64,000 bases of DNA from a virus (IMGVR_UViG_3300036857_000619:1-64000), one strand, 5' to 3'. Counted from the stretch's first letter, positions 47,912 to 64,000 are shown. A program made the numbers and translations. Notes: generated from the sequence alone by a model not told the origin.

Positions 47912-49693
47912 CTAGCCGACCATCTGGCCATACGGCGTCGGCTGTAGCCTCGGCGCGATCACCTCGATGACAAACTGCGTCACCGCCAGCTCATCCTCGT
48001 GCGTGGTCAGCACGTCCAGGAACATCTGCGTCACGTGAATGCCTGGACGGGTGTCGCCGACCGGAATGCTGAGCGGGACCGTGAACGTGCTGGTGAGCAG
48101 TAGCCGTCCAACGGCGACGACCCACTCGCCGGCGCGGCCAGACCCGCGTCCCTTGACGATCAGCGTCAGCGGGACGGCCCGATCGGGCCGTCTGACGAAC
48201 CGCGCCAGGACGGGTACGTCCTGCGACGGTCTGGTGAACCCGACCGGTATCGACAGCGGGACCGGGAGGTTGGTTTCGACCTGCACCGGAATCCGCAGCG
48301 GGACGACCGTTCGAAGTGAGGTGAAGACGGCCTGGATCGGAATCCAGCCCGCCCGGTACAACTGCGTCCGCGCCGGGACGCTGCGCGGGGTGGCGTAGGT
48401 CTTGACCCACAGCTGGAGCGGAACCGTCAGGGCGTGCGGGGTGGGTTGGACGATCTGTCCCGTGGCAGGCACGGAGCGCGACCGACGGGTGCCGCCAAAG
48501 CACGCGGTGACCGGGATGTAGCGGTCCCAGTGCGCGATGAATCGAGCGGGGACACTGCGTTGCTGGTGCCAACGGAAGGCGGGATAGACCGGGACCGGGC
48601 GTTCCCTGGCAGGCAGGAACCACGCCGTGCCTGGAACCGACCGCTCGATCTGAGGTCGCGGGAGAGCCTCGACGTTCAGCGCGAAGCTGCCGATGCGGCG
48701 GCTGGGGACGGCGCGAACCTCGACGTTGAGCGCGAAGCTGCCAATGCGGCGCGGCGTGGGCGGCGTGGCGAAAACGACGGTGACTGGAACGACGCGGGTC
48801 GCGACGGGCCGGTAATCGACAAGGAAACCGAACGACCCAAGCTGGCGTGCCGGTGGCGGTGAGGCGAAGTCAACGACAAACCCAAACCCACCCAGTTGTC
48901 GCTGGGGTGGCGTGGGCTGGTAGTCGACGACGAACCCGAAAGCACCGACCTGGCGGAGTGGTCCTGCGGAGAAGCTCGCCGTAATGGGTACGCTGCGGAA
49001 GTTGCTGACGACCGTGGACAGCAGCGCCGTGGCAGGCACGCTGCGGGAGTTGGTGCTGATCGCCCCGTACCACCAGCGCTGGGCAGCGCTCGCATCCGTG
49101 ACGGCAACCACCACCGCGGCGGTGTCCAGTGACGCGGCGGCGGTAGGCGCAGTCGCCCTAATCCAGGGCGGGAATAGCCCGGAGAATTGCGCGAGCGCTA
49201 CGACGTTGCGCGACAGCCGCTGACCGCCGAATTGCGCGGTCGCCGGCACGCTGCGTCCCAGAAGCTGGGGCGGGACGTAGAAGTCGACGCTGACGCCCGC
49301 GGCGCCGACCTGGGGATACCCCGTGGCCGGACGGGCGAACTCGACGCTGATCCCCGCGCCACCCACCAGCGCGGCGGGCGGGTAGCGGTCGATCTGGAGC
49401 GCGACGCCGCCGATCTGGCGCGGCGCGGTGGTGACGATGTCCGGCTGCAGCCCGACGCCGCCCACCTGACGTCCGATGCCAGGCGTGATCTCGACGTTCA
49501 GCGCGACACTGCCGACTTGACGCGCGGGCGCCGTGGCCTGCACGTCCACGTTCAGCACGACACTGCCGACCCGACGCGCGGGCGCCGTGGCCTGCACGTC
49601 CACGTTCAGGGCATCGCCGCCTACTTGACGTACAGGCGGGGCCGCGACGATCTCGACGTTCAGCCCGACACTGCCAGCTCGGCGGTCGGTCAC
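47912..49693 (-). CDS. Beta-strand repeat protein (593 aa), putative fibre/scaffold
   Basis: About 13 R[QR][VIL]G[SGA]x[AG][LF]xV[DE] repeats and about 17 RSVP[AV]T-type repeats. Confidence 0.7.
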   Translation of the reverse strand: MTDRRAGSVGLNVEIVAAPPVRQVGGDALNVDVQATAPARRVGSVVLNVDVQATAPARQVGSVALNVEITPGIGRQVGGVGLQPDIVTTAPRQIGGVALQIDRYPPAALVGGAGISVEFARPATGYPQVGAAGVSVDFYVPPQLLGRSVPATAQFGGQRLSRNVVALAQFSGLFPPWIRATAPTAAASLDTAAVVVAVTDASAAQRWWYGAISTNSRSVPATALLSTVVSNFRSVPITASFSAGPLRQVGAFGFVVDYQPTPPQRQLGGFGFVVDFASPPPARQLGSFGFLVDYRPVATRVVPVTVVFATPPTPRRIGSFALNVEVRAVPSRRIGSFALNVEALPRPQIERSVPGTAWFLPARERPVPVYPAFRWHQQRSVPARFIAHWDRYIPVTACFGGTRRSRSVPATGQIVQPTPHALTVPLQLWVKTYATPRSVPARTQLYRAGWIPIQAVFTSLRTVVPLRIPVQVETNLPVPLSIPVGFTRPSQDVPVLARFVRRPDRAVPLTLIVKGRGSGRAGEWVVAVGRLLLTSTFTVPLSIPVGDTRPGIHVTQMFLDVLTTHEDELAVTQFVIEVIAPRLQPTPYGQMVG

Positions 49694-49703
49694 CGCATTG
49701 GCC

Positions 49704-50780
49704 TTAGCGGACCGTGACGCCCGCTTCTACAGCATTGACCGCGGCTGAGGTCCAGGCAGCGCCGGTGTTGGGATCTGTTTCCCAGCGGCTCACGACGTAG
49801 TTGGCGCTGGTTCCCAGCGCGGCGGCGGCCGCTTCGCTGGTGGTCGCGCCGCTTTTGAGAGTGGGCGCCAGCGATCCCGCGCCCGCGTCCGAGTTCTGCG
49901 CCAGCGCGATGGCCTCCACCACGTTGATGGAAAACCCCGCGGGCACATCCGTCATCGCATACAGATCGCGGTCACCCACGTTGGCCGACATCACGTAGTC
50001 GGACATGGACGGCGGCACCTCGTCCACCTGGCTCCAGTTGGCGCCGGAGTCCGTGCCGCCTCGCGTCAGCACGGTGCTGCTGCCCGCGCCGCTGGGTGTG
50101 AGCAGAATGACGCGCCCGTCGCCGGGACGGCCGTTATTGAGTGTGCCGTTGGTGTCGTTGACGGCCAGATCGTCGTACGCGTAGTAGGTGCCGGTCGTCG
50201 GAGCAACCCCACTGAGCAGCGTCAAGCCCACCTGAAGCACCTGGACGTTCAGCGTGCTGCTGGCCGTGTTGTCCACGCCGCTCACGTTGATGACCTGGCT
50301 CCCATCCAGCCAGAGCTCGCTGGTGCCGCTGGTCGCGCTGGTGATCTGCGTGCGCCATTCGATCACGTGCCAGCTGTCGGGCGGGCAAGCCGCGTTGGAC
50401 GAGGCAATAGAACCTCCCGAAGCGAGTGAGCCCGGCGCGCGGTAGATGCGCAGCAGACCATCAGTCGCCGACCAGCTCAACTGGGTCTGCTGTTGCCCGG
50501 TTGACTCAAGCCACTGCGCGATGGCTTCTTCCGTCGAATTTGTGGCGTGCGCGTAGAACGCAAACCGAACCCACACGTCCGTCTTCGGTGCGGGAAGCAC
50601 GAAGCTCTTGTAGGTCAGAGCGGCGCCGGACGCGATCTGGGCGTATTTCAGGCAGAACGTGCCCGCGCGAGGCGTCGGCGTGGTGCTGACGACCGTGAGC
50701 GTCGTGTTACCCCCGATGGTTGAGGTGCCAGCCTCGTTGACGTCGCCGGTCTCCCAGCCACATGTGAGTAAACGCGTCAT
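49704..50780 (-). CDS. ConA/LamG-like virion protein P1 (358 aa)
   Basis: MTRLLTCGWETGD...WHVIEWR...WLDG...DDLAVNDTNGTLNNGRPGDGR...GVTVR*. Confidence 0.75.
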   Translation of the reverse strand: MTRLLTCGWETGDVNEAGTSTIGGNTTLTVVSTTPTPRAGTFCLKYAQIASGAALTYKSFVLPAPKTDVWVRFAFYAHATNSTEEAIAQWLESTGQQQTQLSWSATDGLLRIYRAPGSLASGGSIASSNAACPPDSWHVIEWRTQITSATSGTSELWLDGSQVINVSGVDNTASSTLNVQVLQVGLTLLSGVAPTTGTYYAYDDLAVNDTNGTLNNGRPGDGRVILLTPSGAGSSTVLTRGGTDSGANWSQVDEVPPSMSDYVMSANVGDRDLYAMTDVPAGFSINVVEAIALAQNSDAGAGSLAPTLKSGATTSEAAAAALGTSANYVVSRWETDPNTGAAWTSAAVNAVEAGVTVR

Positions 50781-51838
50781 CGCACCGTAACCCCCGCTTC
50801 CGCGCCGTTGACGCCGGCGAACGTCCAGGGCTGCCCCGTATTCGGGTCGGTCTCGCGTGCCAGCCGCGGGTAGGCGGGCCACATGCCCAGCGTCACGGCC
50901 GAGCCTTCCAGCACGGCGGCGCCACTTTTGAGCGTGGCCGCGGCCGCGGCTTCGCCCGCGTCGCCCTTTTGCGCCTGGGCGACCACGTCTACCGCGTAGA
51001 TCACCACTGGCGGAGCCGCCAGGTCGGTGATGGCGTACAGGTCGCGGTCGCCGGGCGTGGCGGACTGGACGTAGTCCGCCACGGACATCGGCGACTCGTC
51101 CACCTGGCTCCAGTTGGCGCCGCTGTCGGTCCCGCCGCGCGTCAGCATCGTGCTGCTGCCAGTCCCACTCGGCGGCAGAAAGACCACCCGGCCGTCACCC
51201 GGCCGCCCGTTGTTGATCGTGCCGGTCGTGTCGTTGATGGCCAGGTCGTCGAAACAGTGGTAGCTAGCCCCCCGCACTACGCCGATACACCCGATACGCA
51301 GCTGCCCGATCGTCAGCAGCGTGGTCGCCGCGTTGTTGTCGCCGGAGAAGAGGATGATCTGCATGCCATCCAGCCACACCTCGGTGATGCCGCTGGTAGT
51401 GCTGCTCATCTGATGCCGCCATTCGAGGGTGTGCCAAACAGCCAGCGACACGCTCACGCTGGACGTCGCGACCACCGTGCCGTTGCTCCCCTGACACGCG
51501 TCGATGAATTGAGTGCTGCGCAAGCACAGCGAGGCCAGCGCCACGCCGTTTGGATCGCGCAACTCGCAGAACGGCGCGATGCTATCGCCGGAGGCGCCGC
51601 CGTTGTATAGCTGGAAGTTTCCCGACCACCGTACCCAGACTTCGTTTGCAGCCGGACCGAACACAATCGTTTTGTAGGAACTATCGAAGGACGCGCTTGG
51701 CGTCCACGCCTTGATGCAGTACGCCGTGCGCGGCGTCGGGGACGTGTTGACCGCCGTCACGCTGCCGATGTTGGTGTAATCGAAGCCCAGCTCGCTGGAG
51801 TCACCCGATTCCCAGCCGCACGTCACCAGGCGGCTCAT
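50777..51838 (-). CDS. ConA/LamG-like virion protein P2 (353 aa)
   Basis: Same conserved termini; ATGA overlap. Confidence 0.75.
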   Translation of the reverse strand: MSRLVTCGWESGDSSELGFDYTNIGSVTAVNTSPTPRTAYCIKAWTPSASFDSSYKTIVFGPAANEVWVRWSGNFQLYNGGASGDSIAPFCELRDPNGVALASLCLRSTQFIDACQGSNGTVVATSSVSVSLAVWHTLEWRHQMSSTTSGITEVWLDGMQIILFSGDNNAATTLLTIGQLRIGCIGVVRGASYHCFDDLAINDTTGTINNGRPGDGRVVFLPPSGTGSSTMLTRGGTDSGANWSQVDESPMSVADYVQSATPGDRDLYAITDLAAPPVVIYAVDVVAQAQKGDAGEAAAAATLKSGAAVLEGSAVTLGMWPAYPRLARETDPNTGQPWTFAGVNGAEAGVTVR

Positions 51839-52893
51839 CGCGCCGTGATCCCAACTTCCGCGGCGTTCACCGCCGCCGGCGTCCACGCCGCGGAAGTATT
51901 CGGATCGGTTTCGTACTGGGTGCGGACATACGCGGGCGTGGTGGTGAGCGCTGAGGCAGCCGCCTCGTTGATCGTCGTTCCGCTTTTGATGGTCGGCGCC
52001 AGACTGGCCCCCACGTCCACGGCCTGCGCCAGCACGAGGTTGTCCACCGCGTTCACGCTCGTGGTGATGGCAGGTAGATCGGCCACGGCGTACAGATCGC
52101 GGTCCCCGATGGTGAAGGATTCGACGTAGTCGGTCATCGCCATGGGGTTGTCGTCGACCTGACTCCAGTTCGCGCCGCTATCCGGCCCGGAGAGCCGCAG
52201 CCACGTGGTGGAGCTGCCCACAGCGTTCGGAGTGAGCAGCACCACCCGGCCATCGCCGGGGCGGCCGTTGTTGATGGCGCCGGTCGTGTCGTTGATCGCC
52301 AGATCGTCGACCGCGTGCCACCAGTAGCGGGTGGACCCCCAGACGCCGAGGTCCAACTGCGCGACGTTCAGCAGCGTGCCGGCCGAGTTGTCGCCGGAGA
52401 AGCTGATCTGCTGGCTGCCGTTGACCCACAGCTCGGTGATGCCCTGCGTCAGGCTGGTCATCTGGTGCCGCCATTCGAGCGTATGCCACACCAACAGCGG
52501 CGCCGACTGGCTGGTGCCGAGTAGTGTGGTGTTGGTCGCGCCACCCTGGCGTGCGCGGATGAACCCGTCGACCCTCGAGTACGTGAGGCACGCCACCGCC
52601 GTCCCGCCGCTATCTCGCAGTCGGGCCACCATCCACTCGGTGCCACCCGCTAGCTGCGGACTGCGAAATTGCGCCGCCCAGCGGACCCACACCTCGGTGC
52701 GCGCTCCGAAGTTGAACGTCTTGTAGACGTCCGCGCCCGAGATCGAATTGATGCCCATGCGACAGCACCAGTTGCCCGCGCGCGGCACCGGCGTGCTGTT
52801 GACCGCGAAGATCTCGGCGCTGGGGCCCAGGAAGTTGGTGCCCGCCTCGTTGGGGTCGCCAGTTTCCCAGCCGCACGTCAGCAGGCGGGCCAT
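51835..52893 (-). CDS. ConA/LamG-like virion protein P3 (352 aa)
   Basis: MARLLTCGWETGD; same C-terminal block. Confidence 0.75.
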   Translation of the reverse strand: MARLLTCGWETGDPNEAGTNFLGPSAEIFAVNSTPVPRAGNWCCRMGINSISGADVYKTFNFGARTEVWVRWAAQFRSPQLAGGTEWMVARLRDSGGTAVACLTYSRVDGFIRARQGGATNTTLLGTSQSAPLLVWHTLEWRHQMTSLTQGITELWVNGSQQISFSGDNSAGTLLNVAQLDLGVWGSTRYWWHAVDDLAINDTTGAINNGRPGDGRVVLLTPNAVGSSTTWLRLSGPDSGANWSQVDDNPMAMTDYVESFTIGDRDLYAVADLPAITTSVNAVDNLVLAQAVDVGASLAPTIKSGTTINEAAASALTTTPAYVRTQYETDPNTSAAWTPAAVNAAEVGITAR

Positions 52894-53954
52894 CAGTGCA
52901 CCGTCACTCCAGCCTCGAGCGCATTCAGGTCGGCTACCGTCCAGCCGGCGGTGGTGTCCGGGTTGGTCTGGTACTGCTGGCGGAAATATTGCGGGCTGAT
53001 TGCGAGCGCTTGCGCAGCGCCTTCGGCTGTCGTGGCGCCCGTCTTGAGCGTGGGCGCCACCGACATCGAGCCGACGTCGCTGGTCTGGGCGTAGGCGAGC
53101 GCCTCGACGGTGTTCACCGACCAGCCGCTGGCCGCCGAGGGGACGTCCTGCAACGTGTACAGATCGCGGTGGCCAGCGGTGGCGTCGTACACGAAGTCTG
53201 TCATGGACATGGGCACATCGTCGACCTGCGACCAGTTCGCGCCGCTGTCGGTCCCGCCCCGCAGCAGCTGCGTGCTGCTGCCAGCTCCACTCGGACTCAG
53301 CAGCACCACGCGGCCGTCACCCGGCCGCCCGTTGTTGACCGTCCCGTTGGTATCGTTGATCGCCAGGTCATCGAACGCGTAGTACGGGCCTCCAGAGAGC
53401 ATGGCAGCACCCGTCCCCACAAGAACATTGCCTATATTCAGAGCCGAAGTCTGTGTGTTATCGACGCCGACGAGGTTGAGTGTCTGGGCGCCGTCGAGCC
53501 AGACCTCAACCGTGCCGACGGTCAGCGACGTCATTTGCCAGCGCACTTCGAGTGTGTGCCACTGATCGGCGCTCATTTGCAGCGCACTGGTCCCGAGCAA
53601 GAAGACGGTCGACCGATAGGCGCGTAACAGCGAGTCGCTGGTGGTCCAGGTCACGCGGCCTTGCAACGAGCCAGCGTTGTCGGAGAAGCTGACCAGCGCG
53701 TTTTCGCTGTTCGGGTTCGCGTGCATGAGCACTCCCAGGCGAACCCACACATCCGTCAGCGGGTTGGGGAGAACCCAGTTGACATTGGCGATGTTGACAG
53801 CGCCGATCGCCATGAGCTTCAGACAGTGCGCACCTGGAGCACGTGGCGTTGGTCCGCTGGATACCACCGTCGCGACACCTGGCCCATTCACCGAGAGCAA
53901 GCCCGACTCGTTCGGGTCACCAGTCTCCCAGCCGCAGGTGAACAGCCGCGTCAT
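52893..53954 (-). CDS. ConA/LamG-like virion protein P4 (353 aa)
   Basis: MTRLFTCGWETGD; same C-terminal block. Confidence 0.75.
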   Translation of the reverse strand: MTRLFTCGWETGDPNESGLLSVNGPGVATVVSSGPTPRAPGAHCLKLMAIGAVNIANVNWVLPNPLTDVWVRLGVLMHANPNSENALVSFSDNAGSLQGRVTWTTSDSLLRAYRSTVFLLGTSALQMSADQWHTLEVRWQMTSLTVGTVEVWLDGAQTLNLVGVDNTQTSALNIGNVLVGTGAAMLSGGPYYAFDDLAINDTNGTVNNGRPGDGRVVLLSPSGAGSSTQLLRGGTDSGANWSQVDDVPMSMTDFVYDATAGHRDLYTLQDVPSAASGWSVNTVEALAYAQTSDVGSMSVAPTLKTGATTAEGAAQALAISPQYFRQQYQTNPDTTAGWTVADLNALEAGVTVH

Positions 53955-54874
53955 TGGGTCGGCACCGCAAGCACGGGATAGTTGTTCGTGTTGGCCGTCG
54001 ACCCCCAGCCAAAGGGCGTGCGCACCTGTTGCGCGCTCACCGTATGGCGAGTGACCAGGACGAGAATGTAGTTTTCGGCGTTGTAGACCAGCCGCCCGTA
54101 AATCGGCGCCGGGAAGTCGTTCGCCGACGAGGCGTTCCACAAACTCATCGCAAAGCCCGCGGAAAAACACTTGCCGATACGACCCCGGATGCCCGCGGCG
54201 TCCTCGATCACCACGTATGGCCAGAGATAGTTGTTGCCGTCCACCAGACACGCGCGTTGCGGGTTGAGCCATGCCGCTCCTGCCTGTGACCCTCCGTTCG
54301 GCATGGACAGCGTGGCCAGCTTGGCGGTCACCCAGGAGGCAGTGTCGGCCCGATTGCGCGATACCCAGCAGGTGTCGACATCCATCTGGGTGGTCGCGGT
54401 CGGGTTGGCGATGAGCACGACGATGGGATTCGGCTCGCCCGCAAAGTAGGGCACCACATCGCCGAGAAAGAAAACCTGGCGCATGGACCCAAGTGACGCC
54501 GAATCCGCGTTCGTCTCGCCCGCACGCGGGCCTTCAATCGACATGAGCAAATGGTCCTGGCCGGCGCTGACCATCGCATGGATCGTGTCGGTGGTCGCAC
54601 CGGTCACCGAGTGCCAGCACAGATACCGCGTGAGCTTGTCGGTGCCGGAACCGGCGCTGTAGCTGCGGTAGACCCCCAGTTGCATGCGCTGCGCGGTCGC
54701 CGCCGCATCCGCCAGATCGACGTTCATCTGCGCCCCGCGCGAGGTCACGGCCTGCATGACGTTGCCCGTGCCGCCCGAGATGTTCGCCCAGTTGGAGGAG
54801 TTGAGAATGCGCGCCTTCATATCGGCGACGATGTTGGCCGGGGTCGAATTAAATTCTGCGAAGTAATTCGGCAT
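53951..54874 (-). CDS. Virion-associated hypothetical protein (307 aa)
   Basis: AAGGAG SD; lies within the structural operon. Confidence 0.7.
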   Translation of the reverse strand: MPNYFAEFNSTPANIVADMKARILNSSNWANISGGTGNVMQAVTSRGAQMNVDLADAAATAQRMQLGVYRSYSAGSGTDKLTRYLCWHSVTGATTDTIHAMVSAGQDHLLMSIEGPRAGETNADSASLGSMRQVFFLGDVVPYFAGEPNPIVVLIANPTATTQMDVDTCWVSRNRADTASWVTAKLATLSMPNGGSQAGAAWLNPQRACLVDGNNYLWPYVVIEDAAGIRGRIGKCFSAGFAMSLWNASSANDFPAPIYGRLVYNAENYILVLVTRHTVSAQQVRTPFGWGSTANTNNYPVLAVPTQ

Positions 54875-54883
54875 GCGGTCTCC

Positions 54884-55606
54884 TTACGCCACCACGCCCG
54901 CGTCGGCGGTATTGCTGTCGCGCCCCTTGTAGACAAACGCCGCCACCGGCGTCGGCGATGCGGGAAAATGGCTCAGATTGACGATCAACCCCAGCCAGGC
55001 CGCCGACGTGATCGTCCACTGCAGTCGCGACAGATTCGCCGCGGTGGCCGAGGCGTACGCCACGGCCGTTCTGATCGTCGTGCTCGAGCCGCTTTCGCCG
55101 TTGTTGACGAAGGTGTTGCCCGTCGACGCGCGAGCCGTCGAGGCGGTGTTGTTGGCCCAGGTGGTGGCCGCGATCACCAGATCGCCGACCGCCGGCGTGA
55201 TCGTCCCACTATCCGCGGTCACGCTCGTGCCGGACGTGGGCGTCCCGGCGGTGGCCGTCGGGGCTCCCTGCGACAGATCGGAGTCCACCCAGACGCAGCT
55301 GACGCCCGAGGCCGCCGTTCCGCCGCCGGTGAAATTGACCGTGTAGGAGGTCGGCGCGCCACCGCTGAAGTTGTAGGCAATCCAGATTTCGAGCGCCCGC
55401 GCGCCGCTAGTCGTAAACGCCAGACGCGTCGTCGTCGCGGTGCCGCTGGGAAAGGTGATGCTGGTGACCGCACCGGCCGTCGGCAGCGCGATGGTGAAGA
55501 TCAACAGCGTGGTCAACGGCGAGGGCGGCGTTAGCCCTCCGGCGGCGACGGCCACGCCCGTGGCGGCGGCACCTCCGGTTTGCGAACCGAGTTGGACCGC
55601 GGGCAT
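54884..55606 (-). CDS. Thr/Ala-rich beta-sandwich virion protein (240 aa)
   Basis: Two repeated beta modules (LLIFTIA / LVIAATT). Confidence 0.65.
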   Translation of the reverse strand: MPAVQLGSQTGGAAATGVAVAAGGLTPPSPLTTLLIFTIALPTAGAVTSITFPSGTATTTRLAFTTSGARALEIWIAYNFSGGAPTSYTVNFTGGGTAASGVSCVWVDSDLSQGAPTATAGTPTSGTSVTADSGTITPAVGDLVIAATTWANNTASTARASTGNTFVNNGESGSSTTIRTAVAYASATAANLSRLQWTITSAAWLGLIVNLSHFPASPTPVAAFVYKGRDSNTADAGVVA

Positions 55607-55640
55607 CAGCGCGTCTGCACCTTCACCATGTACAGCACCA

Positions 55641-56696
55641 CTACCGAACAGTCACACCGCCTTCAAGCGCATCGACGGCAGCCTGAGTCCACGCGGCACC
55701 GGTGTTTGGGTCAATCTCCCAGCGCGCGCCGATGTACGCCGGGCTGGTGCTCAAGTTTTGCGCAGTTGCTTCATCGATCGTCGAACCACTTTTCATCGTG
55801 AGCCCAAACGCGCCCACACCCGGAGCGGCGTTCTGCGCAAACGCCACGGCTTCGATCACATTGATGGGGCCGACACCGCTAGCAGGGGTATCGTTCATCG
55901 TGTAGAGATCGCGATCAGCCACCACGCCGGAACTGACGTACTGCGCCATCGACGGCGGCAGCTCGTTTTCCTGACTCCAGTTCGCACCCGTATCGGTCCC
56001 ACCCCGACTCAAGGTCGTAACCGAACCCGCACCATTGGGCACCAGCAGCACGATGCGCCCGTCACCGGGTCTGCCGTTATTGACCGTGCCGTTGGTGTCG
56101 TTGATGGCGATGTCATCAAACCCGTGGTAAACCGAGCCTCCAGTCCCAGGATTACCCAAGCCCCCAAGTTTGAGGCCAGCTAGATTGAGCGTGGCTGTCG
56201 CGGAATTGTCGCCGCTAAAGTTGACGACCCGCGCCCCATCGAGCCAAAGCTCCGTGGTGCCGGTGCTCGTCGTGAGTAATTGCGTACGCCACTCGATCAG
56301 GTGCCAGGTATCGATGGGAAAGCTGACGGTAGACGTTCCCAGCAGTGCAGGGCCGTACACACGCAGCAACCCGTCTGGCGGGTTATAGCTCAGGTATGTC
56401 TGGACCGCAGCACTGGCATCGGTCAGTTGCGCGAATGGGTACTCTGACAGGGTGCCTGTGGATGGATGTGTGAGAAACGCGAAGCGAACCCAGAGTTCTG
56501 TCCGTGCAGGCAGCACAAAGTTCTTGTAGCCAGTGTTCCCGATAGTGGTCGCCGCGGCTACTTTCAGGCAGTACGCACCGGATCGAGGCGACGGCGTGTT
56601 TGAGACCACCGTCGACGTAGCGTTGGAGTTGTTGACGGTGATCCCCGCTTCATTCACGTCCCCGGTCTCGTAGCCCGTCGTCAGCAGTCTGGCCAT
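55641..56696 (-). CDS. ConA/LamG-like virion protein P5 (351 aa)
   Basis: MARLLTTGYETGD...DDIAINDTNGTVNNGRPGDGR...GGVTVR*. Confidence 0.75.
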   Translation of the reverse strand: MARLLTTGYETGDVNEAGITVNNSNATSTVVSNTPSPRSGAYCLKVAAATTIGNTGYKNFVLPARTELWVRFAFLTHPSTGTLSEYPFAQLTDASAAVQTYLSYNPPDGLLRVYGPALLGTSTVSFPIDTWHLIEWRTQLLTTSTGTTELWLDGARVVNFSGDNSATATLNLAGLKLGGLGNPGTGGSVYHGFDDIAINDTNGTVNNGRPGDGRIVLLVPNGAGSVTTLSRGGTDTGANWSQENELPPSMAQYVSSGVVADRDLYTMNDTPASGVGPINVIEAVAFAQNAAPGVGAFGLTMKSGSTIDEATAQNLSTSPAYIGARWEIDPNTGAAWTQAAVDALEGGVTVR

Positions 56697-58027
56697 CAGT
56701 TGCTCACCCGGTAACCGAACGTGTCGGTCGTGAAGTCACTCGCCAGCCAGCCGCGATGGGCAAACGGATTGCGCTCGAGCGTGGCCGTGGTCAACGCCCA
56801 GCCAGCGTTGAGCGGGCCGTACGTCACCCAGGACGGAACTTCAATGGGCTTCCCTGGCTGGTCAATCGTCAACGTTGGTCCGAGCGCCTGCACGGCTGCC
56901 TCGCCAATCACCGTCTCCAGCGTGGAGTTGATCGTGCCCAGGCGTTTCGTGACGGCAGCGAACTGGACGGCGATGATCCGCCCGTGCGCTGTCAGCGCCT
57001 CCATCGTGTATTGATCCGTAGCCCCGAAGGTGCTGCTCGCCACGTTGGTCGCGTCGTCATCGCTTGTTACGTCAGCCACGTCCTGCCAGTTCTGAGTTGT
57101 CGGCGGCATGGGCGCAAACTGCGTGCGTGGTCCGGCTCCAGTAGGCCGCAGGGTGGTCGTCTTGACCACGCCCAGGAAGTCCGTCACATCTCCAGCCTGC
57201 GTATCAGCGATATACACATCGTCGTAGTCGTAGCACCATTCCCAGATGTCGAGGTCCCCTCCGCCAAGTCCCCAGGTGACGGCCCCGCGACCACCGATCG
57301 CGCCCAGATAGACCCACGGATAGCCGAAGCCGTAGCGGTTCGTTTCCAGTCCACTCTCGTTCAGGATTTCTTCGCCGTCCTGGCGAATCACGATGGTCCC
57401 GTCGGTGGAGATCCTGAATTCCAGGTACGACCAGATGCCTTCGCGCATGACCGGGCGCCTGGTGCGGGCGATCTCCTCACAGAAACGGTCCGCTGCATGT
57501 TGGACGTCGATGGCCAGGAAGTTGCCGCGTGTGATGCGAAATCCCAGATTCAACCGCAGATAGGTGTTCGGTGGATACGGACCACCCAACCCGAATTCCC
57601 ACCTGCTGTCGAAAAAATCCCACGTCTCCGGTCGGCCCAGGCTCAGAAAGTGCATGTCGAAGGAAGAATTCGGATTCCCCAGATAGACGAACACCCCCAG
57701 CGGATGTCCCGCTGTTCGTCTCCAACGCAACGCCATACCGATGACGAGGGTGGTGGCACCTGGCGTCGGGTGGCCGACGAGATAGTACGCCGCACCCCAT
57801 GATTGGTAGTGCATCCGCAGATAATTGCCGTCGCCTGTCCAGCCTGTTGGCCCGACGATGGTCTCTGGTGGAAACGGACCACCTGGCGGAAGCGGGTAAC
57901 CAACTCCGCCCCGGTTGTTACCCGGAATCGAATTCCAATCGTACGTACCCCACTTGGCTACCAGCGCGGTTGGGTCAGCGTTGGTAGCCGTGTACGTGTC
58001 GAAGGAGTCGAAGAAGAGCAGCGTCAC
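56696..58027 (-). CDS. Divergent ConA-like virion protein P6 (443 aa)
   Basis: VTLLFFDSFDTY...WSYLEFR...YDYDDVYIAD...FLG.V....LRP...NWQDV. Confidence 0.7.
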   Translation of the reverse strand: MTLLFFDSFDTYTATNADPTALVAKWGTYDWNSIPGNNRGGVGYPLPPGGPFPPETIVGPTGWTGDGNYLRMHYQSWGAAYYLVGHPTPGATTLVIGMALRWRRTAGHPLGVFVYLGNPNSSFDMHFLSLGRPETWDFFDSRWEFGLGGPYPPNTYLRLNLGFRITRGNFLAIDVQHAADRFCEEIARTRRPVMREGIWSYLEFRISTDGTIVIRQDGEEILNESGLETNRYGFGYPWVYLGAIGGRGAVTWGLGGGDLDIWEWCYDYDDVYIADTQAGDVTDFLGVVKTTTLRPTGAGPRTQFAPMPPTTQNWQDVADVTSDDDATNVASSTFGATDQYTMEALTAHGRIIAVQFAAVTKRLGTINSTLETVIGEAAVQALGPTLTIDQPGKPIEVPSWVTYGPLNAGWALTTATLERNPFAHRGWLASDFTTDTFGYRVSN

Positions 58028-59379
58028 GTGCTCGCCATCCCGTGTTCGGCGTCGGGGGCGTTGAAGTCGTCGGCAACCCACGGCACGCCCGTCAATGGAT
58101 TCAGACCGTAGGGCACCGAATACACCGTGTAGTTGGCGGGCGATGGTCTGACCGACTGCCCGACGAGCTGCCCGGCCCGACGCGTCACGGTCGCGAGCTT
58201 GAAGCTGGTTCCGCTCACATTTTTGGTCGTGTAGACGTACTGCGCACCGAGAATGCGCCGCGGCACGTGCTCCATCGGATAGGTGTCGATCAACCCCGTC
58301 TCCCTGGCGGACACCAGCCCGTTGTCGAAGTCTGGCGTGGGTCGATCACTGACCAGTTGCCAGTTCGCGCCGTCCGGCTGGGGTGTCCAGCCCGTGGTCG
58401 TACCTACCGCACGGGGCCGGATCGCGGTGACCTGAACATCTCCCAGGAACGACACCGGGTCCGGCTCAATCGTATCCAGCATGTACACATCGTCGTAGTC
58501 GTACCGAAAGTTGAACAGAAACGGCCAACTGCTCTGACCACCGATCTTGCCCAGATAAATCGTGTCGTACTGGTTGCCCACGTCGCCTTCCCAGGAGCCG
58601 TAGAGTCTGCCATCGCGCTGCACGGTCATTCTTCCGTTGCCGATACGGAACTCCCAGTAGTGCCACTCGCCAGGCAACGCGGTGTCGGGCGGACCGTTGC
58701 CAAGCTGATTGCCCCACACCGCTTCCTCGAACCCCGACGTGGGCAATCCAGGGCCGTTCGGCTCGAAATGCAGTCCTTCAAACACGACACCGAGCCCGGT
58801 GGAGCCCTGGGCTTCGTCGTAGCTGAATGTCGTGTAGCCCGTGCCGTACGGGTGCCACAGGGCGACAATCGCGGCGTACATCGCTTTGACCGCCTCGCCC
58901 AGACCGATCAGGCCACCATGACCGGGCGGCGGCGGGATGTACACCCGATCCCGTCGGCCGATGCCGATGACCTCGTTGTGGTAGCCAATCAGCGCGCTGG
59001 CCTGGCAGATCCCACGCCGACTGAGGCCCATGAAGTCCCACCCGTAAATGGCTGGCGGGCTTGTCCCAAGCGCCCCGCCGACATCACTGACGTTGACATA
59101 CGGGCGCATGGCGAAACCGACGATCACTTCGTCCTTCGGTTGGGCCAGGTATTTTCCGAGAAAGTTGTACTGGCCGAACTGGTCGTGATAGTTCAGCTCG
59201 AGATAACCCAGACCGTTTCGGCCACCCGTGGCGTGCGTGCGCACTTGTGGTAAATCGCCCCGGCCAGCGAACTGCATGATGCCCCACTTGCTGGCAAGCG
59301 GCCACGCGTTCAGGTTCTCCGGATCGAGCGACAGGTCCATCGTGTAATGGTCGAACGAGTCGGTGAACAGCAAGCTCAC
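58024..59379 (-). CDS. Divergent ConA-like virion protein P7 (451 aa)
   Basis: VSLLFTDSFDHY...WHYWEFR...YDYDDVYMLD...FLGDVQV.AIRP...NWQLV. Confidence 0.7.
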   Translation of the reverse strand: MSLLFTDSFDHYTMDLSLDPENLNAWPLASKWGIMQFAGRGDLPQVRTHATGGRNGLGYLELNYHDQFGQYNFLGKYLAQPKDEVIVGFAMRPYVNVSDVGGALGTSPPAIYGWDFMGLSRRGICQASALIGYHNEVIGIGRRDRVYIPPPPGHGGLIGLGEAVKAMYAAIVALWHPYGTGYTTFSYDEAQGSTGLGVVFEGLHFEPNGPGLPTSGFEEAVWGNQLGNGPPDTALPGEWHYWEFRIGNGRMTVQRDGRLYGSWEGDVGNQYDTIYLGKIGGQSSWPFLFNFRYDYDDVYMLDTIEPDPVSFLGDVQVTAIRPRAVGTTTGWTPQPDGANWQLVSDRPTPDFDNGLVSARETGLIDTYPMEHVPRRILGAQYVYTTKNVSGTSFKLATVTRRAGQLVGQSVRPSPANYTVYSVPYGLNPLTGVPWVADDFNAPDAEHGMAST

Positions 59380-59903
59380 GTCGGCTGCCCTCGCATCCGG
59401 AGCAGTTGCTCCTGGTCGCCGACCGCGATCGGCTGCACGGTGAGCTGCGGCTGCTCCTTCATGTACAGCACCAGCGTCAACTGCTCGACCACGGCGGCGT
59501 CGCGAGGCTGGATCAGAATGGCGTCGCGGCGGTTGAGCTGGAGCGGTCCATTCCAGCTGGAGAGATCCGTGGAGTTGATGTTCGTCGTGCCTGGCAGATA
59601 CGGCGCCGGGCCATCGCCGATCATGTCGCGCCACACCCGCGGCGTCTGCCAGTCCGACCAGGACAGCGCGAAGCGAACCTCGCCGGGCACCGTCGAGTCG
59701 ATCGACCATTCCACCAGCACGCACGGTTTGGTCACCACCAGAATCGCCTGTTCGTCGCCGGTGAAGAAGTAGCCTGGCGCGCCGAATTGCTGCTCCAGAC
59801 CGTGCGCGTCGGCGGGCATGGGCGGGCTGTTCGGCCGCGTGCGGGCAAGAAAGCTCTCTGCGGCACGCTGCAGATCGCGATCAGGCAGGATTTGCTGGGG
59901 CAC
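59376..59903 (-). CDS. Hypothetical tail-region protein (175 aa)
   Basis: GGAGG SD before the GTG at 59903. Confidence 0.6.
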   Translation of the reverse strand: MPQQILPDRDLQRAAESFLARTRPNSPPMPADAHGLEQQFGAPGYFFTGDEQAILVVTKPCVLVEWSIDSTVPGEVRFALSWSDWQTPRVWRDMIGDGPAPYLPGTTNINSTDLSSWNGPLQLNRRDAILIQPRDAAVVEQLTLVLYMKEQPQLTVQPIAVGDQEQLLRMRGQPT

Positions 59904-61593
59904 CGGACCTCCGCATTTGGGTGGGAATGATGGGATTGCCGTTCTGATCGAGCTCCAGACCACCGCCCAGGTACGTCGGCGTCTGGGTCAGCACCGGCGC
60001 GCCGGCGCGGACTTCGAGCTCGAAGTCGTTACCCTGGCACCACAAGGGCTCGCCGGTGCCCAGCCGGTCGGGGAGGCCCGCCGGCCCCTGGACGAGATGG
60101 ATCTGGCCGGGCGCGATCAGCGTGTCCTGCGCGGTGGTGAGCGAGCCGGTGACCGTCTCGCGCGCGATCTCGAGCAGCCGCGCCTTTGCGACCGTCTCGC
60201 AATCCATGCCGAAGCGCTGGGTGGGATCAATGTCCTGGGGCGGCCCGTTCAGCGTGAAGCCGGCATTGATGGCCTTGGCGTCCGAGCCGTCCTGGCCCCG
60301 GTCGACCGTCCAGCTGCTGCCAGCGACGTCAGTCACCAGCATCGACTCGGCCGTCTCCGCGCAAAAAAGCGTGAAGGGCGGGTCCGGGAAGCGGTCCATG
60401 CTGTCGGGGGTGATCGACGTGGCGTCCGCGGTGGCGGCGGCCGCCGCCTTGGCCGAGACCGAGCGCTGGGTGTAGCTGAGTTGCCCGCTCACGCTCATCC
60501 AGTCGATCCAGTCGCTCGAGGGCGGCGACGGATCGTAGTGGTAGGTCGTGGGCCCTGGTGGCCCGATCGGCATGAAGATCGGGATGTTCGTCGCGGCCTC
60601 CCAGTGCATCTGGAAGGGCCCCAGCTCGGTGCCCATCACCAGCGTGCGATTGCCGAGCGGATAGTCGCGCTGGAAACTCGCCGACAGGATGTTCGGCGTG
60701 CCGGGCGCGGGCGGAAACTGGTTGCCATCGGCGTCGCGGATCTCCGTCGAGCCGCCCTCGGTGAAGATGATGTCGGTGCCGTCGAGGTCCTGCGAGTACG
60801 GGCCGCTCGGGTGACCGCCGACGAGTTTGACCACGACGTCGCCCGACGGCATCTCGAACAGGCGGAAGAAGCCGATGCGATTCGGCGGCCCGAGATCGTA
60901 CAGCGCTTCGATCTGGGAGTATTTCTGGAGATAACTGAGCGCGGACTCACCCGCGCGGCGGTAGGCGTTTTCGACGTTGACGTCCCCACCCGCAGACAGG
61001 CCGCCGGTGCCGGAGTGCCAGATGAAGCGCAACCCGACCGGATCGGCGATGCCGAAGCCATAAACGCGGCCCGTGGACTGGAGGTTGGCCAGCGTGTGCG
61101 GCACGTTCGCCCGCAGCAGCACCGCGTGGGCGATCTCCGTGTACGTCGCGCAACCGGCGAAGTGGCCAGAGCTGGGCACCAGGTCCTGGACGCGCAGACC
61201 CCCGATCCCGATCGAGTAGGTGGTGTTGCCGAAGGTCAGATTGGGGATCGTCCGTCCGGGGATGCTGGTGCTCTCCTGCCAGTTGATGTATTCGTCGGCT
61301 CGCGACAGCTCGCCGACGCAGTCCATGACGACGTTGCGCGGCAAGAGGTCGTAGTGCGCCTTGCGGCGGCGGCCCTTGAAGCGCGTGATGAGCCCATTAC
61401 CCCCGTCAGCTACGGCGACACCGCACTTGATCTCGACCGGAGAGTCGTACGTGCCGTAGGCGTAGGGCGCGACGATGGTGGCGCGCGCGACGGCGTCCGT
61501 CAGTGAGTGGCTGGCGCGAAACGCCAGGAAGTCGTGCACAGTCTGATTGCCGACGGTCAACTGCGCCTGGATCTGGCGGCGCACGATCGGCAT
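59881..61593 (-). CDS. Tail hub / baseplate-like protein (570 aa)
   Basis: Second gene after the tape measure; MPIVRRQIQAQLTVG...ATIVAP...VEIKCG...RFKG resembles hub-protein N-termini. Confidence 0.55.
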   Translation of the reverse strand: MPIVRRQIQAQLTVGNQTVHDFLAFRASHSLTDAVARATIVAPYAYGTYDSPVEIKCGVAVADGGNGLITRFKGRRRKAHYDLLPRNVVMDCVGELSRADEYINWQESTSIPGRTIPNLTFGNTTYSIGIGGLRVQDLVPSSGHFAGCATYTEIAHAVLLRANVPHTLANLQSTGRVYGFGIADPVGLRFIWHSGTGGLSAGGDVNVENAYRRAGESALSYLQKYSQIEALYDLGPPNRIGFFRLFEMPSGDVVVKLVGGHPSGPYSQDLDGTDIIFTEGGSTEIRDADGNQFPPAPGTPNILSASFQRDYPLGNRTLVMGTELGPFQMHWEAATNIPIFMPIGPPGPTTYHYDPSPPSSDWIDWMSVSGQLSYTQRSVSAKAAAAATADATSITPDSMDRFPDPPFTLFCAETAESMLVTDVAGSSWTVDRGQDGSDAKAINAGFTLNGPPQDIDPTQRFGMDCETVAKARLLEIARETVTGSLTTAQDTLIAPGQIHLVQGPAGLPDRLGTGEPLWCQGNDFELEVRAGAPVLTQTPTYLGGGLELDQNGNPIIPTQMRRSGAPANPA

Positions 61594-62102
61594 CAGGGAC
61601 CTATTCCATTCGGCGACGGAGCGCCCGTCTCCTCGTGCGTCTGGGCGGTCTTCGCGGTCCCACCGATCGCCCCGTCTGGGGCACTGGCGGGATCGACCAG
61701 CAGGAGGAAGTCGGCTTCCGCCTTGTGGACCGCCATCGGCAGCGCCTCGTTGCGGCTCAGGCTGACCAGGATGGCCGTGTAGGTGACTGGCTCCGTGATG
61801 ACAGGCCGGTTGGCGATGCCAGAGCGGACCTGCAGGCTCATGTTGAGCGGACCACTGGGGTCCGGCCCCCAGTGATCGACATACACGACACCGCCCACGC
61901 TCGGATCGCCAGCCACGCGCACGGAGCATGGGCGCACGTAGCTGAACAGCGCGTCGAGCTCGACGATGTCGTACACGAGGATGGATCCCGACAGGTGCAG
62001 GGCGCCGTCCTGGATGGTGCGTTTCGGGTTGCCGTATTCCCAGTCGAAGCCCGTGCCGCGGAAACTTGAGACCGGGGAGTAGTAGGGCGAGGGCATCGTC
62101 AT
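61593..62102 (-). CDS. Distal tail-like protein (169 aa)
   Basis: Immediately follows the tape measure; beta-rich. Confidence 0.5.
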   Translation of the reverse strand: MTMPSPYYSPVSSFRGTGFDWEYGNPKRTIQDGALHLSGSILVYDIVELDALFSYVRPCSVRVAGDPSVGGVVYVDHWGPDPSGPLNMSLQVRSGIANRPVITEPVTYTAILVSLSRNEALPMAVHKAEADFLLLVDPASAPDGAIGGTAKTAQTHEETGAPSPNGIGP

Positions 62103-64000
62103 CGCTGAGCGACTCCCGACATCGTGCCGTTGACGTTGCCCTGAGCGGTGCGGAACACGTAGACGAGCTGATTGCGCACCTGTTCGTAGGTCTGATCGCC
62201 GGCTTGATCGGCGGCGGCGCGGGCGATGCGTTCGATGTCCTCCTGGGAATTGATCGTCGCGCCGCTCAGATCGACGCTGATCGACGGCGCGGTCGACGGC
62301 ATCATCGCCGCGTGGTACACCTCGGCCTGCTCGGGTTCGGCCGCGGGTGTGATCGGCGCCTGGACGTAGCTCTGAATCGGGCGAACGTCGGGCCCCTGCG
62401 GAAACAGCCGCCGCAGCACCTGGTCGCTCGCGCCGCTGAAGATCTGCCGGATCTCGGGCGTGAGCGTGTCGCCGAAGCCCTGCATCGCTGCCTGGAGCTG
62501 CTGTTTGGTCGCGACCGGCGCCTGGGCGGGTGGTGGCGCCGGCTGCGGCTGCGGTTGGGCCTCGAGACTGCGGAGCGCGGCGACGATCTGGGCGAACTCG
62601 CTCAGCTCTTCGGGCGTCGGCTGGGTCTGGTAGGGATCTCGGCCTGGGACGAGGATGCCCTGGCGCACGCCCTCCTGTTGGGCCCGCGCGAAGGCCGTCG
62701 GCAGATCGAGCAAACCCGATTCGATGGCCCCGAGATCGTTGTGCACGAACTCCGGCGCAAGCCCGAGGTGGCGCAGCGCCGCATTGGTCACTTCCTGCGC
62801 GGAGGGCGGTGCTGCCGCGGGTGGGGGCTGGGACGGTTGTCCGCCGCCGCCTGCGCCGCCACCCGGCCGCTGGTCCGGATACTCGCCGCGCTCGCCGCGC
62901 CGCTGGTCCTCGAGCGCGCGCTGGTTGGCTTGCTTGGTCTGCTCGTCGGTGATCTGCTTCTGAATATCCAGGCGCGCCTGGTCCGCCACGAGCTGCAGCG
63001 CCGTCGTCTTCAGCAGGTCGTTGGCGACATTCAGCAGGTCGGTCTCGGCTGCCAACCCGGCGTTTTCGAGGATCGCGGCGCGTTCGGCGGCCGTTGCCTG
63101 ACGCTCGAGCGCGTCAGCCCCCAGCACCTGCCGCTCGGCGATCTCGCGTTCCGGTTCGCGCTGCAGATCGCGCAGATCGAGGGCCGTCTGGATGTGTAGT
63201 TGCTGGTTCTGCAGACTCGCCGCGATCTGCTGTTGCTGGAGCTGGACGTCCTCGAGCGCGCGCTGCTCGTTGCTCAGTTGATTCAGGATCAGGTCGCGCG
63301 CGATCTGCTCGTCCTCAAGCTGGCGTTGGGGGCCGACCAGCGAGCGTTGCGCTTCCAGGGACTGGGGCAGTTGGGCCTGCGCTTCGAGCGTGGCCTGGAT
63401 CTGTTCCTGCACCAGACCAGGGATCGCCCCAAAGTCCGCGCCGCGGCCGAGCAGCACATTGGCGCCGATCGCACGCAACCGCGCGCCGGCGATCGTGGCG
63501 CGATACTGCAGGTCCTCCTGCTCGCGCGTGGCAGCCAACGAGCCCTGACGGGCCAGGAGCAGCTGTCGCTCAGTCTCCAGGTTGGTGCGCTGGGCGATGG
63601 TGACCCTTGCCTGGAGCTGAGTCTGTTGCAACTGGTTGTCGGAGATGGCCAGCTCGAGTTGGAGTTGCTGCGCCTTGAGATTGGTGAGCTCCTGCTGGCG
63701 GCTGATGCCATTGGCCTGGACGTCGAGCAAGTCGTGCTGGTGCTGGGCGGAGAGCTCGTCGAGTTGCGCCTGGGCCTGGGCACGGCCCATGGCGATGTAG
63801 GCGCGCGCCTGCTCGATCTGTTTGAGCTGCGCCTGGGCGCCGGCCTGGCGCTGAAGATCGGCCAGCTCCTCCGCGGCTGGCCGCGTGCCGGGCTGACCCT
63901 GGATCGTCGCGACCGCGCCGGGTCCCTGTGCCGCGGCGCGGACCAGCGGCGGCAGCACTTCCAGGTTCTGGGCCTGCAGCGCCGTCGCCGCGTTGCGCTG
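62099..64000 (-). CDS. Tape measure protein, C-terminal part (frame open to the window edge)
   Basis: Long Q/A/L/E-rich helical ORF; C-terminal ISVDLSGATINSQEDIERIA motif typical of TMP ends. Confidence 0.7.
   Translation of the reverse strand, partial: QRNAATALQAQNLEVLPPLVRAAAQGPGAVATIQGQPGTRPAAEELADLQRQAGAQAQLKQIEQARAYIAMGRAQAQAQLDELSAQHQHDLLDVQANGISRQQELTNLKAQQLQLELAISDNQLQQTQLQARVTIAQRTNLETERQLLLARQGSLAATREQEDLQYRATIAGARLRAIGANVLLGRGADFGAIPGLVQEQIQATLEAQAQLPQSLEAQRSLVGPQRQLEDEQIARDLILNQLSNEQRALEDVQLQQQQIAASLQNQQLHIQTALDLRDLQREPEREIAERQVLGADALERQATAAERAAILENAGLAAETDLLNVANDLLKTTALQLVADQARLDIQKQITDEQTKQANQRALEDQRRGERGEYPDQRPGGGAGGGGQPSQPPPAAAPPSAQEVTNAALRHLGLAPEFVHNDLGAIESGLLDLPTAFARAQQEGVRQGILVPGRDPYQTQPTPEELSEFAQIVAALRSLEAQPQPQPAPPPAQAPVATKQQLQAAMQGFGDTLTPEIRQIFSGASDQVLRRLFPQGPDVRPIQSYVQAPITPAAEPEQAEVYHAAMMPSTAPSISVDLSGATINSQEDIERIARAAADQAGDQTYEQVRNQLVYVFRTAQGNVNGTMSGVAQR

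Follow-up and report, generated by a model that had tools for sequence, protein, structure and literature searches.

The first 64,000 nt of a complete virus genome from the IMG/VR collection (IMGVR_UViG_3300036857_000619:1-64000, hereafter the window) carry, at positions 49704-59379, an array of seven paralogous genes, P1 to P7, for two-domain phage tail proteins in which a ConA-type jelly roll with a variable core is followed by a conserved C-terminal domain. With modest confidence, we read the array as a set of long-diverged tail paralogs whose glycan-binding heads would be docked through their C-domain onto the product of the adjacent repeat-protein gene, R, and shown together on the virion. 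The locus is a variation on multi-receptor-binding-protein display, and neither a new kind of system nor a recombination device.

Organization of the array

All seven open reading frames (ORFs) were intact and ran on the minus strand from P7 to P1, with the sizes (in amino acids, aa) given by the original prediction, which had been made from the sequence alone. The array is, however, split between P5 and P4 by two genes that this prediction did not mention, X2 and X1, both unrelated to the P family. The genes of the region are as follows.

58024..59379, minus strand: P7, 451 aa, GTG start; distant subfamily, ConA-like N-domain with insertions plus the family C-domain (phrog_2448, E 4.5e-15)
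56696..58027, minus strand: P6, 443 aa, GTG start; distant subfamily (phrog_2448, E 2.9e-21)
55641..56696, minus strand: P5, 351 aa; core subfamily, lowest third-position G+C (GC3) of the array (0.70)
54884..55606, minus strand: X2, 240 aa; Gly/Ala/Thr-rich, inside the array
53951..54874, minus strand: X1, 307 aa; inside the array
52893..53954, minus strand: P4, 353 aa; core subfamily
51835..52893, minus strand: P3, 352 aa; core subfamily, sister of P2
50777..51838, minus strand: P2, 353 aa; core subfamily
49704..50780, minus strand: P1, 358 aa; core subfamily, directly upstream of R, the copy nearest the single-copy homologues of other phages
47912..49693, minus strand: R, 593 aa; repeat protein, starting 10 nt after the end of P1

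Each of the seven P proteins matched phrog_2448 (E 5e-33 to 5e-15), a PHROG family of function 'unknown', P1 to P5 with E values of 5e-33 to 1e-25 and P6 and P7 over part of the profile. Amino-acid identity to P1 was 46-57% within P1-P5 and 22-23% for P6 and P7, which share 31% with each other and form the distant subfamily that had been proposed. Within P1-P5, identity was 29-48% in the core (residues 21-195) compared to 52-66% in the C-terminal half. The same contrast held family-wide (44% vs. 66%), and therefore the conserved ends and variable core picked out by the original prediction belong to the family as a whole and do not single out this array.

Stop and start codons overlap by 1 or 4 nt at six junctions, namely P7/P6 (4 nt), P6/P5, X1/P4, P4/P3, P3/P2 and P2/P1, with P6 overlapping both the P7 stop and the P5 start, and the X1 stop overlapping the P4 start. 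Since, in addition, no promoter-like or terminator-like site rose above shuffled expectation, the array looks like one translationally coupled operon, in line with the coupling claimed earlier. With regard to the two unrelated genes, X2 had neither a Pfam nor a PHROG match, and its look-alikes in the Atlas were viral hypothetical proteins. X1, which lies nearest to an Atlas cluster called 'putative Minor tail protein' (score 0.97), is probably a minor tail protein and has a homologue in the viral contig L009 (E 6e-104). As the order X2-X1-P recurs in that contig (8256-11095), the three-gene block may have moved as a unit.

Fold of the P proteins and variability of the predicted cleft

In an AlphaFold2 model of P1 built on 45 homologues (predicted local distance difference test score, pLDDT, 94.3; predicted template-modelling score, pTM, 0.91), residues 1-224 folded into a ConA-type jelly roll and residues 225-358 into a small beta sandwich of their own, which reached a pLDDT of 93.7 when modelled alone. 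The N-domain most closely resembled two proteins of Trichoderma reesei, the endo-beta-1,4-glucuronan lyase of polysaccharide lyase family 20 (PL20; 2zzj, Z 20.2, root-mean-square deviation 3.0 over 203 residues) and Cip1 (3zyp, Z 20.0, root-mean-square deviation 2.5 over 189 residues), which agrees with the ConA-like fold that had been proposed. The next-best matches were sialidase lectin domains and PL14, PL36 and PL7 lyases, with 267 chains at Z of at least 8. Furthermore, the family profile matched Cip1 (E 5.6e-9) and the PL20 glucuronan lyase (E 2e-3) by sequence. From this fold, the N-domains are predicted to bind glycans.

The calcium site of Cip1 consists of Glu7, the loop 32-41 and Asp206 of the last strand, and was considered structural by its authors (PMC3764139). 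Residues E10, R38, G40, D203 and D204, nearly invariant in the P family, align with these elements, and the conserved ends are thus the predicted structural calcium 'grip' of the N-domain, which Cip1 and the PL20 lyase build from an N-terminal loop, a 'bent fingers' loop and the last strand. This explains the N-terminal motif and the start of the C-terminal block highlighted in the original prediction as the two sides of a clasp that holds the jelly roll together. In contrast, the positions aligned, remotely, to the Cip1 cleft residues His83, Thr85, His98, Arg100, Gln104, Glu194 and Tyr196 differ among P1-P5 and rank high in column entropy. By this alignment, the variable core takes in the putative ligand cleft, which would be hypervariable, in keeping with the earlier designation of the variable part as a putative ligand-binding region. 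Both fungal proteins differ from P in lacking its conserved C-terminal beta sandwich, and their cleft residues are unconserved in P.

An alternative that we consider unlikely, and in which docking and display could be just as we propose, is that the P proteins are virion-borne depolymerases, that is, PL20/PL14/PL7-type lyases with different substrates that strip capsule or exopolysaccharide. The best structural matches (2zzj, Aly36B, vAL-1 and PL14) speak for it, as does the annotation of gp35 of Pseudanabaena phage Pam4, a P homologue, as a polysaccharide lyase. P1 is also the only copy above the gathering cut-off of the Pfam family PF14099, Polysacc_lyase (39.7 bits, cut-off 29.9 bits), and P4 (22.8 bits), P5 (17.6 bits) and P2 (17.4 bits) gave sub-threshold matches. 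However, P3, P6 and P7 matched neither this nor any other Pfam family. To our knowledge, no enzymatic activity is known for the phage P family. Moreover, the cleft positions of Cip1 and the lyases are unconserved in the family and among the paralogs, the invariant residues mapping instead to the structural calcium site, and Cip1, the closest solved sequence relative, gave no convincing evidence of acting as a lyase or hydrolase (PMC3764139).

Pairing of P genes with a repeat-protein gene and predicted docking

The R protein contains 13 copies of the strand motif G-x-x-x-L-x-V-(D/E), spaced by approximately 17-18 residues, and at least 11 RSVPxT motifs. Its gene has also undergone recent internal duplication, the repeated DNA units measuring 54 nt at 49491-49706 and 51 nt at 48664-48751. 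The gene right after P in 15 related viral contigs, all of L001-L013 among them, opens with a near-invariant MTDRxxGxxGLxVDL motif, which is followed by 2-5 further repeats and a variable C-terminal part, giving proteins of approximately 125 to 456 aa; these C-terminal parts are mutually unrelated. A profile of the small partner forms matched R with an E value of 4.5e-34. Repeat proteins also accompany P genes in more distant phages, where they carry short strand repeats at their N-terminus (AchV4_0028 of Achromobacter phage vB_AchrS_AchV4 and Pam4 gp36), and ORFs with RVTQxxVEVL-type repeats lie beside P genes in the contigs L033, L036, L041, L065 and L068. In L024 (4105-6171, plus strand), a P unit is fused to approximately 17 tandem copies of a motif of about 19 residues (AG.A.L.S.TPD..L...R), the fused counterpart of separate P and repeat-protein genes, and the P unit of Sphingomonas phage Lucius is fused to an extension.

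On account of this conserved pairing, the complex of P1 with residues 1-160 of R was predicted in three runs, with an alignment supplied for each protein, and compared with three controls. The median complex score was 0.78 (0.79, 0.78 and 0.68), whereas the best control reached 0.00. A score of 0.78 was attained by 58 of 80 solved complexes and by 2 of 110 mismatched pairs, a rough calibration, since own alignments were used here. At least 97% of the contacts agreed between runs, and the pLDDT of the partner was at least 53. In the predicted interface, R residues 1-18, which hold the invariant motif, face P1 residues 220-229, 251-266, 272-304 and 348-358, with further contacts to P1 residues 6-11, 204 and 206. 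In P1-P5, the residues in tightest contact are either kept or exchanged for similar ones; in P6 and P7, some of them have changed. The model thus supports, rather than shows, docking of R residues 1-18 on the conserved C-domain of P1. Recall of a solved structure is an unlikely source of this score, because no solved full-length relative was found; Foldseek and VIA matches covered the N-domain only.

On the co-display reading, the N-terminal jelly roll of the PL20/Cip1 kind, stabilised by the calcium grip, would carry the hypervariable cleft, which would most likely bind, and possibly cut, cell-envelope polysaccharide. The C-terminal beta sandwich would serve as a docking domain that catches the strand motif MTDRxxGxxGLxVDL and the internal repeats of R. 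Translation of the seven genes would be coupled within a single late operon of the distal tail module, and each virion would present an assortment of glycan-binding heads together, all held by one shared adaptor, leading to broader or stronger adsorption; we infer from this an effect of the array on host range.

A more far-reaching version, which we put forward only tentatively, is that the P C-domain and the R-type strand repeats form a general and previously undescribed plug-and-socket of phage tails, similar to cohesin and dockerin, in which R would be a multivalent rail for many copies of up to seven lectin-like heads, a mixed 'lectin brush'. If true, the number and type of heads would be tunable by gene duplication on one side and by repeat duplication on the other, and a very large set of unannotated tail genes (>35,000 clusters) would gain a role.

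Distribution of the family and probable presence in virions

A profile search of 1.84 billion representatives returned 35,652 clusters (50% identity) at E <= 0.001, and 11,610 at <= 1e-30. Whole-protein structural relatives, with template-modelling (TM) scores of about 0.7-0.84, were present in many isolated phages, among them Sphingomonas phage Kharn (TM 0.82), the Achromobacter phages AchV4 and Motura, Serratia phage JS26, Vibrio phage VpV262, Cronobacter phage JC01 and Providencia phage Kokobel1, with Hafnia phage Enc34 as a weaker relative (TM 0.38). The homologues of Lucius, Pam4 and AchV4 lie downstream of the tape-measure gene, where the tail module ends or is close to its end. A literature search covering Pam4, Casjensviridae and flagellotropic siphophages turned up no study of the family's structure or function.

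Of 80 related viral contigs, 69 had one P copy, seven had two, one had three and three had four. Seven is the largest array seen here and, since arrays of 2-4 copies recur in other viral contigs, it is an expansion and not a new kind. No orthologous seven-gene array was found in any other contig, and an exact-pattern scan of viral contigs by means of P6 found nothing.

In bacterial genomes, relatives were found in just two metagenome-assembled genomes. Giant proteins of 1,000-5,500 aa also contain the P unit, in two to three copies each, with nine hidden Markov model (HMM) stretches listed for P0207. Three such proteins (P0121, P0132 and P0207) have approximately 3,000-5,500 aa and several full P units each, and P0121 starts with a signal-peptide-like segment and continues into long repeat regions. 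The P unit would therefore also be used in what look like cellular surface proteins, which fits an adhesive module.

With regard to virions, AchV4_0025, AchV4_0026 and AchV4_0027 are homologues of P (profile E 5e-24, 1.4e-25 and 2.5e-20) and form a three-copy tandem array in a cultured phage. The first two were found in purified virions by liquid chromatography-tandem mass spectrometry (LC-MS/MS; PMC7996906, Table 1). By analogy with these homologues, and from their position in the distal tail module, the P proteins are probably virion tail proteins, as the original prediction had it.

Several observations weigh against co-display of the P proteins on R. AchV4_0027 and the R-like AchV4_0028 are absent from the AchV4 virion proteome table (PMC7996906), and R-type proteins may for this reason be assembly factors rather than virion scaffolds. 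Presence of the P proteins themselves in the virion is drawn from AchV4 homologues that are only approximately 25-30% identical. The predicted interface is no more conserved than the rest of the C-domain (0.57 vs. 0.56, p 0.74), the number of repeats in the partner does not simply track the P copy number (single-copy phages have 2-5 repeats), and the complex score is the model's own confidence and not a measurement. A search of 48,161 chains gave no clear structural relative of the C-domain, the best Z being 6.8 (CBM27 and similar), which is below a meaningful level. Finally, the heads are possibly enzymes rather than lectins, given that P1 passes the Pfam polysaccharide-lyase threshold.

Some of these points would equally suit the idea that the paralogs are built into a large tail tip as fixed components, each with a structural position of its own, diverged by constrained drift and devoid of a receptor role, with R as a chaperone that leaves the particle. 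The duplications are old, with saturated synonymous sites, all copies are intact with a C-domain under purifying selection (dN/dS approximately 0.2; see below), and, as mentioned, neither AchV4_0027 nor AchV4_0028 was reported in virions. However, 69 of the 80 related loci have one copy, and extra copies are therefore not architecturally required. The lack of an orthologous seven-gene array in any other contig, the concentration of variation in the lectin-type cleft, and the repetition of the two-domain unit in giant signal-peptide-bearing cellular proteins, which fits an adhesive module, also argue against fixed parts, and we regard this explanation as decidedly improbable.

Age and origin of the copies

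Synonymous differences were at or near saturation in all regions and pairs, including the conserved C-terminal block. The proportion of synonymous differences was 0.37-0.77 in three large regions and two C sub-blocks, and 0.21-0.90 in the N-terminal motif of 20 codons, and the corrected synonymous divergence (dS) ranged from 0.5 to >2. Given this saturation and a ratio of nonsynonymous to synonymous divergence (dN/dS) of approximately 0.2 in the C-terminal block, conservation of this block reflects selection at the protein level. Recent gene conversion was rejected as a cause, because synonymous divergence is saturated throughout.

In trees including 113 metagenomic homologues, P2 and P3 were sisters (97% Shimodaira-Hasegawa-like support), P4 clustered with the metagenomic P0112 (plus P0091 in the larger tree) and not with its neighbours in the array, and P1 and P5 fell within a large metagenomic clade of single-copy homologues. 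Forcing P1-P5 into a single clade cost 89 log-likelihood units and was rejected (approximately unbiased test, p 0.032). The best foreign match of P1 (63-65% identity, metagenomic) exceeded its identity to any paralog, and the array paralogs are as distant from one another as from the homologues of unrelated phages. GC3 was 0.70 in P5, 0.74 in P6 and 0.79 in P7, compared to 0.81-0.88 in P1-P4, and the G+C content of the window falls to 0.61 at 56-58 kb; the lower GC3 of P5-P7 (55641-59379) hints at a separate or more recent origin. Based on the tree placements, the rejected clade, the foreign match of P1 and this GC3 split, the array is a mix of ancient duplications and, probably, separate acquisitions.

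The original prediction had also considered that homologous recombination shuffles lectin cores between the copies, so that the array would be a cassette system generating host-range variants. The 28-bp exact identity on which this was based (51189-51216 = 53311-53338) was confirmed, and P1 and P2 share another run of 28 bp. When the proteins were held fixed and codons were redrawn from the genes' own usage, the longest run averaged 20.8 +/- 3.5 bp and reached at least 28 bp in 3.9% of the trials (p 0.039), so that both runs are only marginally longer than expected by chance. A further point in favour of cassettes is the dS of 0.51 for P2-P4 in the conserved block, lower than in other pairs. 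Against this, the 28-bp runs fall where the peptide is most conserved, third codon positions of this genome are 70-88% G+C, and synonymous divergence ranges from 0.5 to >2 for each pair in each region. No long identical tracts or near-identical repeat pairs were found between P copies, and no clear chimeras emerged from the nearest neighbours of the N-domain and the C-domain. All copies are complete genes of the expressed type, not silent cassettes.

The statement that no reverse transcriptase or invertase is visible could be extended from the window to the complete 124.8-kb genome, which gave no RVT_1 match and no Resolvase-family match, whereas control genomes matched in both searches. Only two weak inverted repeats (77-78% complementary) were detected, and the P copies are all on one strand. 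A diversity-generating retroelement was thus rejected (no RVT_1, no near-identical pair of template and variable repeats), as were invertible tail-fibre cassettes of the Gin/Cin/Min type (no invertase, weak inverted repeats, a single strand). Taken with the lack of any meaningful inverted repeat, these results make a cassette system highly improbable. As a host-range strategy, simultaneous display remains plausible, with docking on R as its predicted mechanism, but recombinational shuffling does not, since dS is saturated and clear chimeras are missing.

Comparison with known systems

Other phages are known to display several receptor-binding proteins; CBA120, for instance, has four tailspikes, and Klebsiella phage PhiK64-1 has many depolymerases. 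Their recognition proteins are encoded side by side, have variable binding parts, and are thought to be mounted together via conserved attachment parts; they are trimeric beta-helix tailspikes with conserved N-terminal anchors, branching from one another. In contrast, the P heads are ConA-type jelly rolls, conservation lies at their C-terminal end, and anchoring would fall to a separate linear-repeat protein. The gene arrangement and the split into conserved and variable parts that characterize multi-receptor display are present in the array, attachment is suggested by the complex model, and presence in the virion by the homologues. As such display is known elsewhere, and tandem arrays occur in AchV4 (three copies) and in other viral contigs (2-4 copies), the 'distinct strategy' suggested by the original prediction did not hold.

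The closest parallel in a cultured phage is AchV4 (Casjensviridae), in which three tandem two-domain homologues at the end of the tail module are followed by AchV4_0028, a protein built from two kinds of short strand repeats. It differs in having three copies and not seven, a proteobacterial host, and low identity to the proteins of the window. In its description, these genes are labelled 'virion structural protein' or 'hypothetical protein', and no function, paralogy or partner is discussed (PMC7996906). Homologues of P1 were likewise found in the Sphingomonas phages Lucius and Kharn (gp21, 'putative tail fiber', 527 aa) and in Pam4 (gp35), with E values of 3e-20 and 6e-18; unlike the array, each is present in a single copy, and the P unit of Lucius and Kharn continues into a fused C-terminal extension in place of a separate gene. 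The receptor-binding domain of TM4 gp23 (9n6a), the baseplate of mycobacteriophage Douge (8zdo) and the CBM2 of the phage J-1 Dit (5ly8) share the broad jelly-roll fold (Z 13.5-13.8). These ConA/CBM-type modules of siphophage tail tips belong to host-recognition devices of long-tailed phages, are much more distant from P than the lyase/Cip1 group, and they are domains within Dit or fibre proteins, whereas P proteins are free-standing two-domain proteins in arrays.

Genome setting

The record is a complete soil phage genome of 124,823 bp with direct terminal repeats and a G+C content of approximately 67%, of which the window covers the first 64 kb. Beyond about 45 kb, the genes lie on the minus strand, and this block contains the following features outside the array.

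87.7-89.6 kb of the genome, minus-strand block: portal gene
L081:14421-17009, minus strand: collagen-like fibre protein, 863 aa (phrog_5073, E 1e-101)
after the collagen-like fibre gene in minus-strand reading order: tail-completion gene
71.3-71.9 kb of the genome, minus-strand block: tail-tube-like gene with an immunoglobulin (Ig) domain
70294-70725 and 70632-71303 of the genome (L081:8294-9303), minus strand: two overlapping small ORFs
62.1-69.9 kb of the genome (window 62099-64000, continuing as L081:102-7928), minus strand: 2609-aa ORF
59881..61929, minus strand: U1, 682 aa, post-tape-measure tail protein (weak tail-fibre match to phrog_38058, E 2e-4)

In minus-strand order, the portal gene is followed by the tail tube, the two overlapping ORFs, the 2609-aa ORF, U1, U0 and the array, with U1 placed between the 2609-aa ORF and the array. 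Downstream of the array come R, two small genes of unknown function and a DNA methyltransferase gene that ends the block. This gene order places the array in the distal-tail, host-recognition region of a long-tailed phage genome. The 2609-aa ORF had no family match in PHROG or Pfam searches and is the presumed tape-measure protein by position and size only; if so, it is unusually long. The overlapping ORF pair, between the tail-tube-like gene and this ORF, occupies the usual site of a frameshifted pair of tail-assembly chaperones. The collagen-like fibre gene sits among head and neck genes, distant from the tail-tip module.

Implications

The P family ranks with the larger groups of phage tail genes that lack annotation, and this locus is the most expanded array seen here. 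It suggests a two-part model, in which a variable ConA-type head would serve for glycan recognition and the conserved C-domain as a socket for the linear motif of a partner, and this linear-motif partner travels with P across very different phages. Should docking fail, the locus would still be a clear example of an old and stable multi-paralog receptor-binding set, not a shuffling device. If docking is true, it would provide an annotation rule for thousands of 'hypothetical' tail genes, as well as a handle for swapping binding heads in laboratory studies of phages and their hosts.

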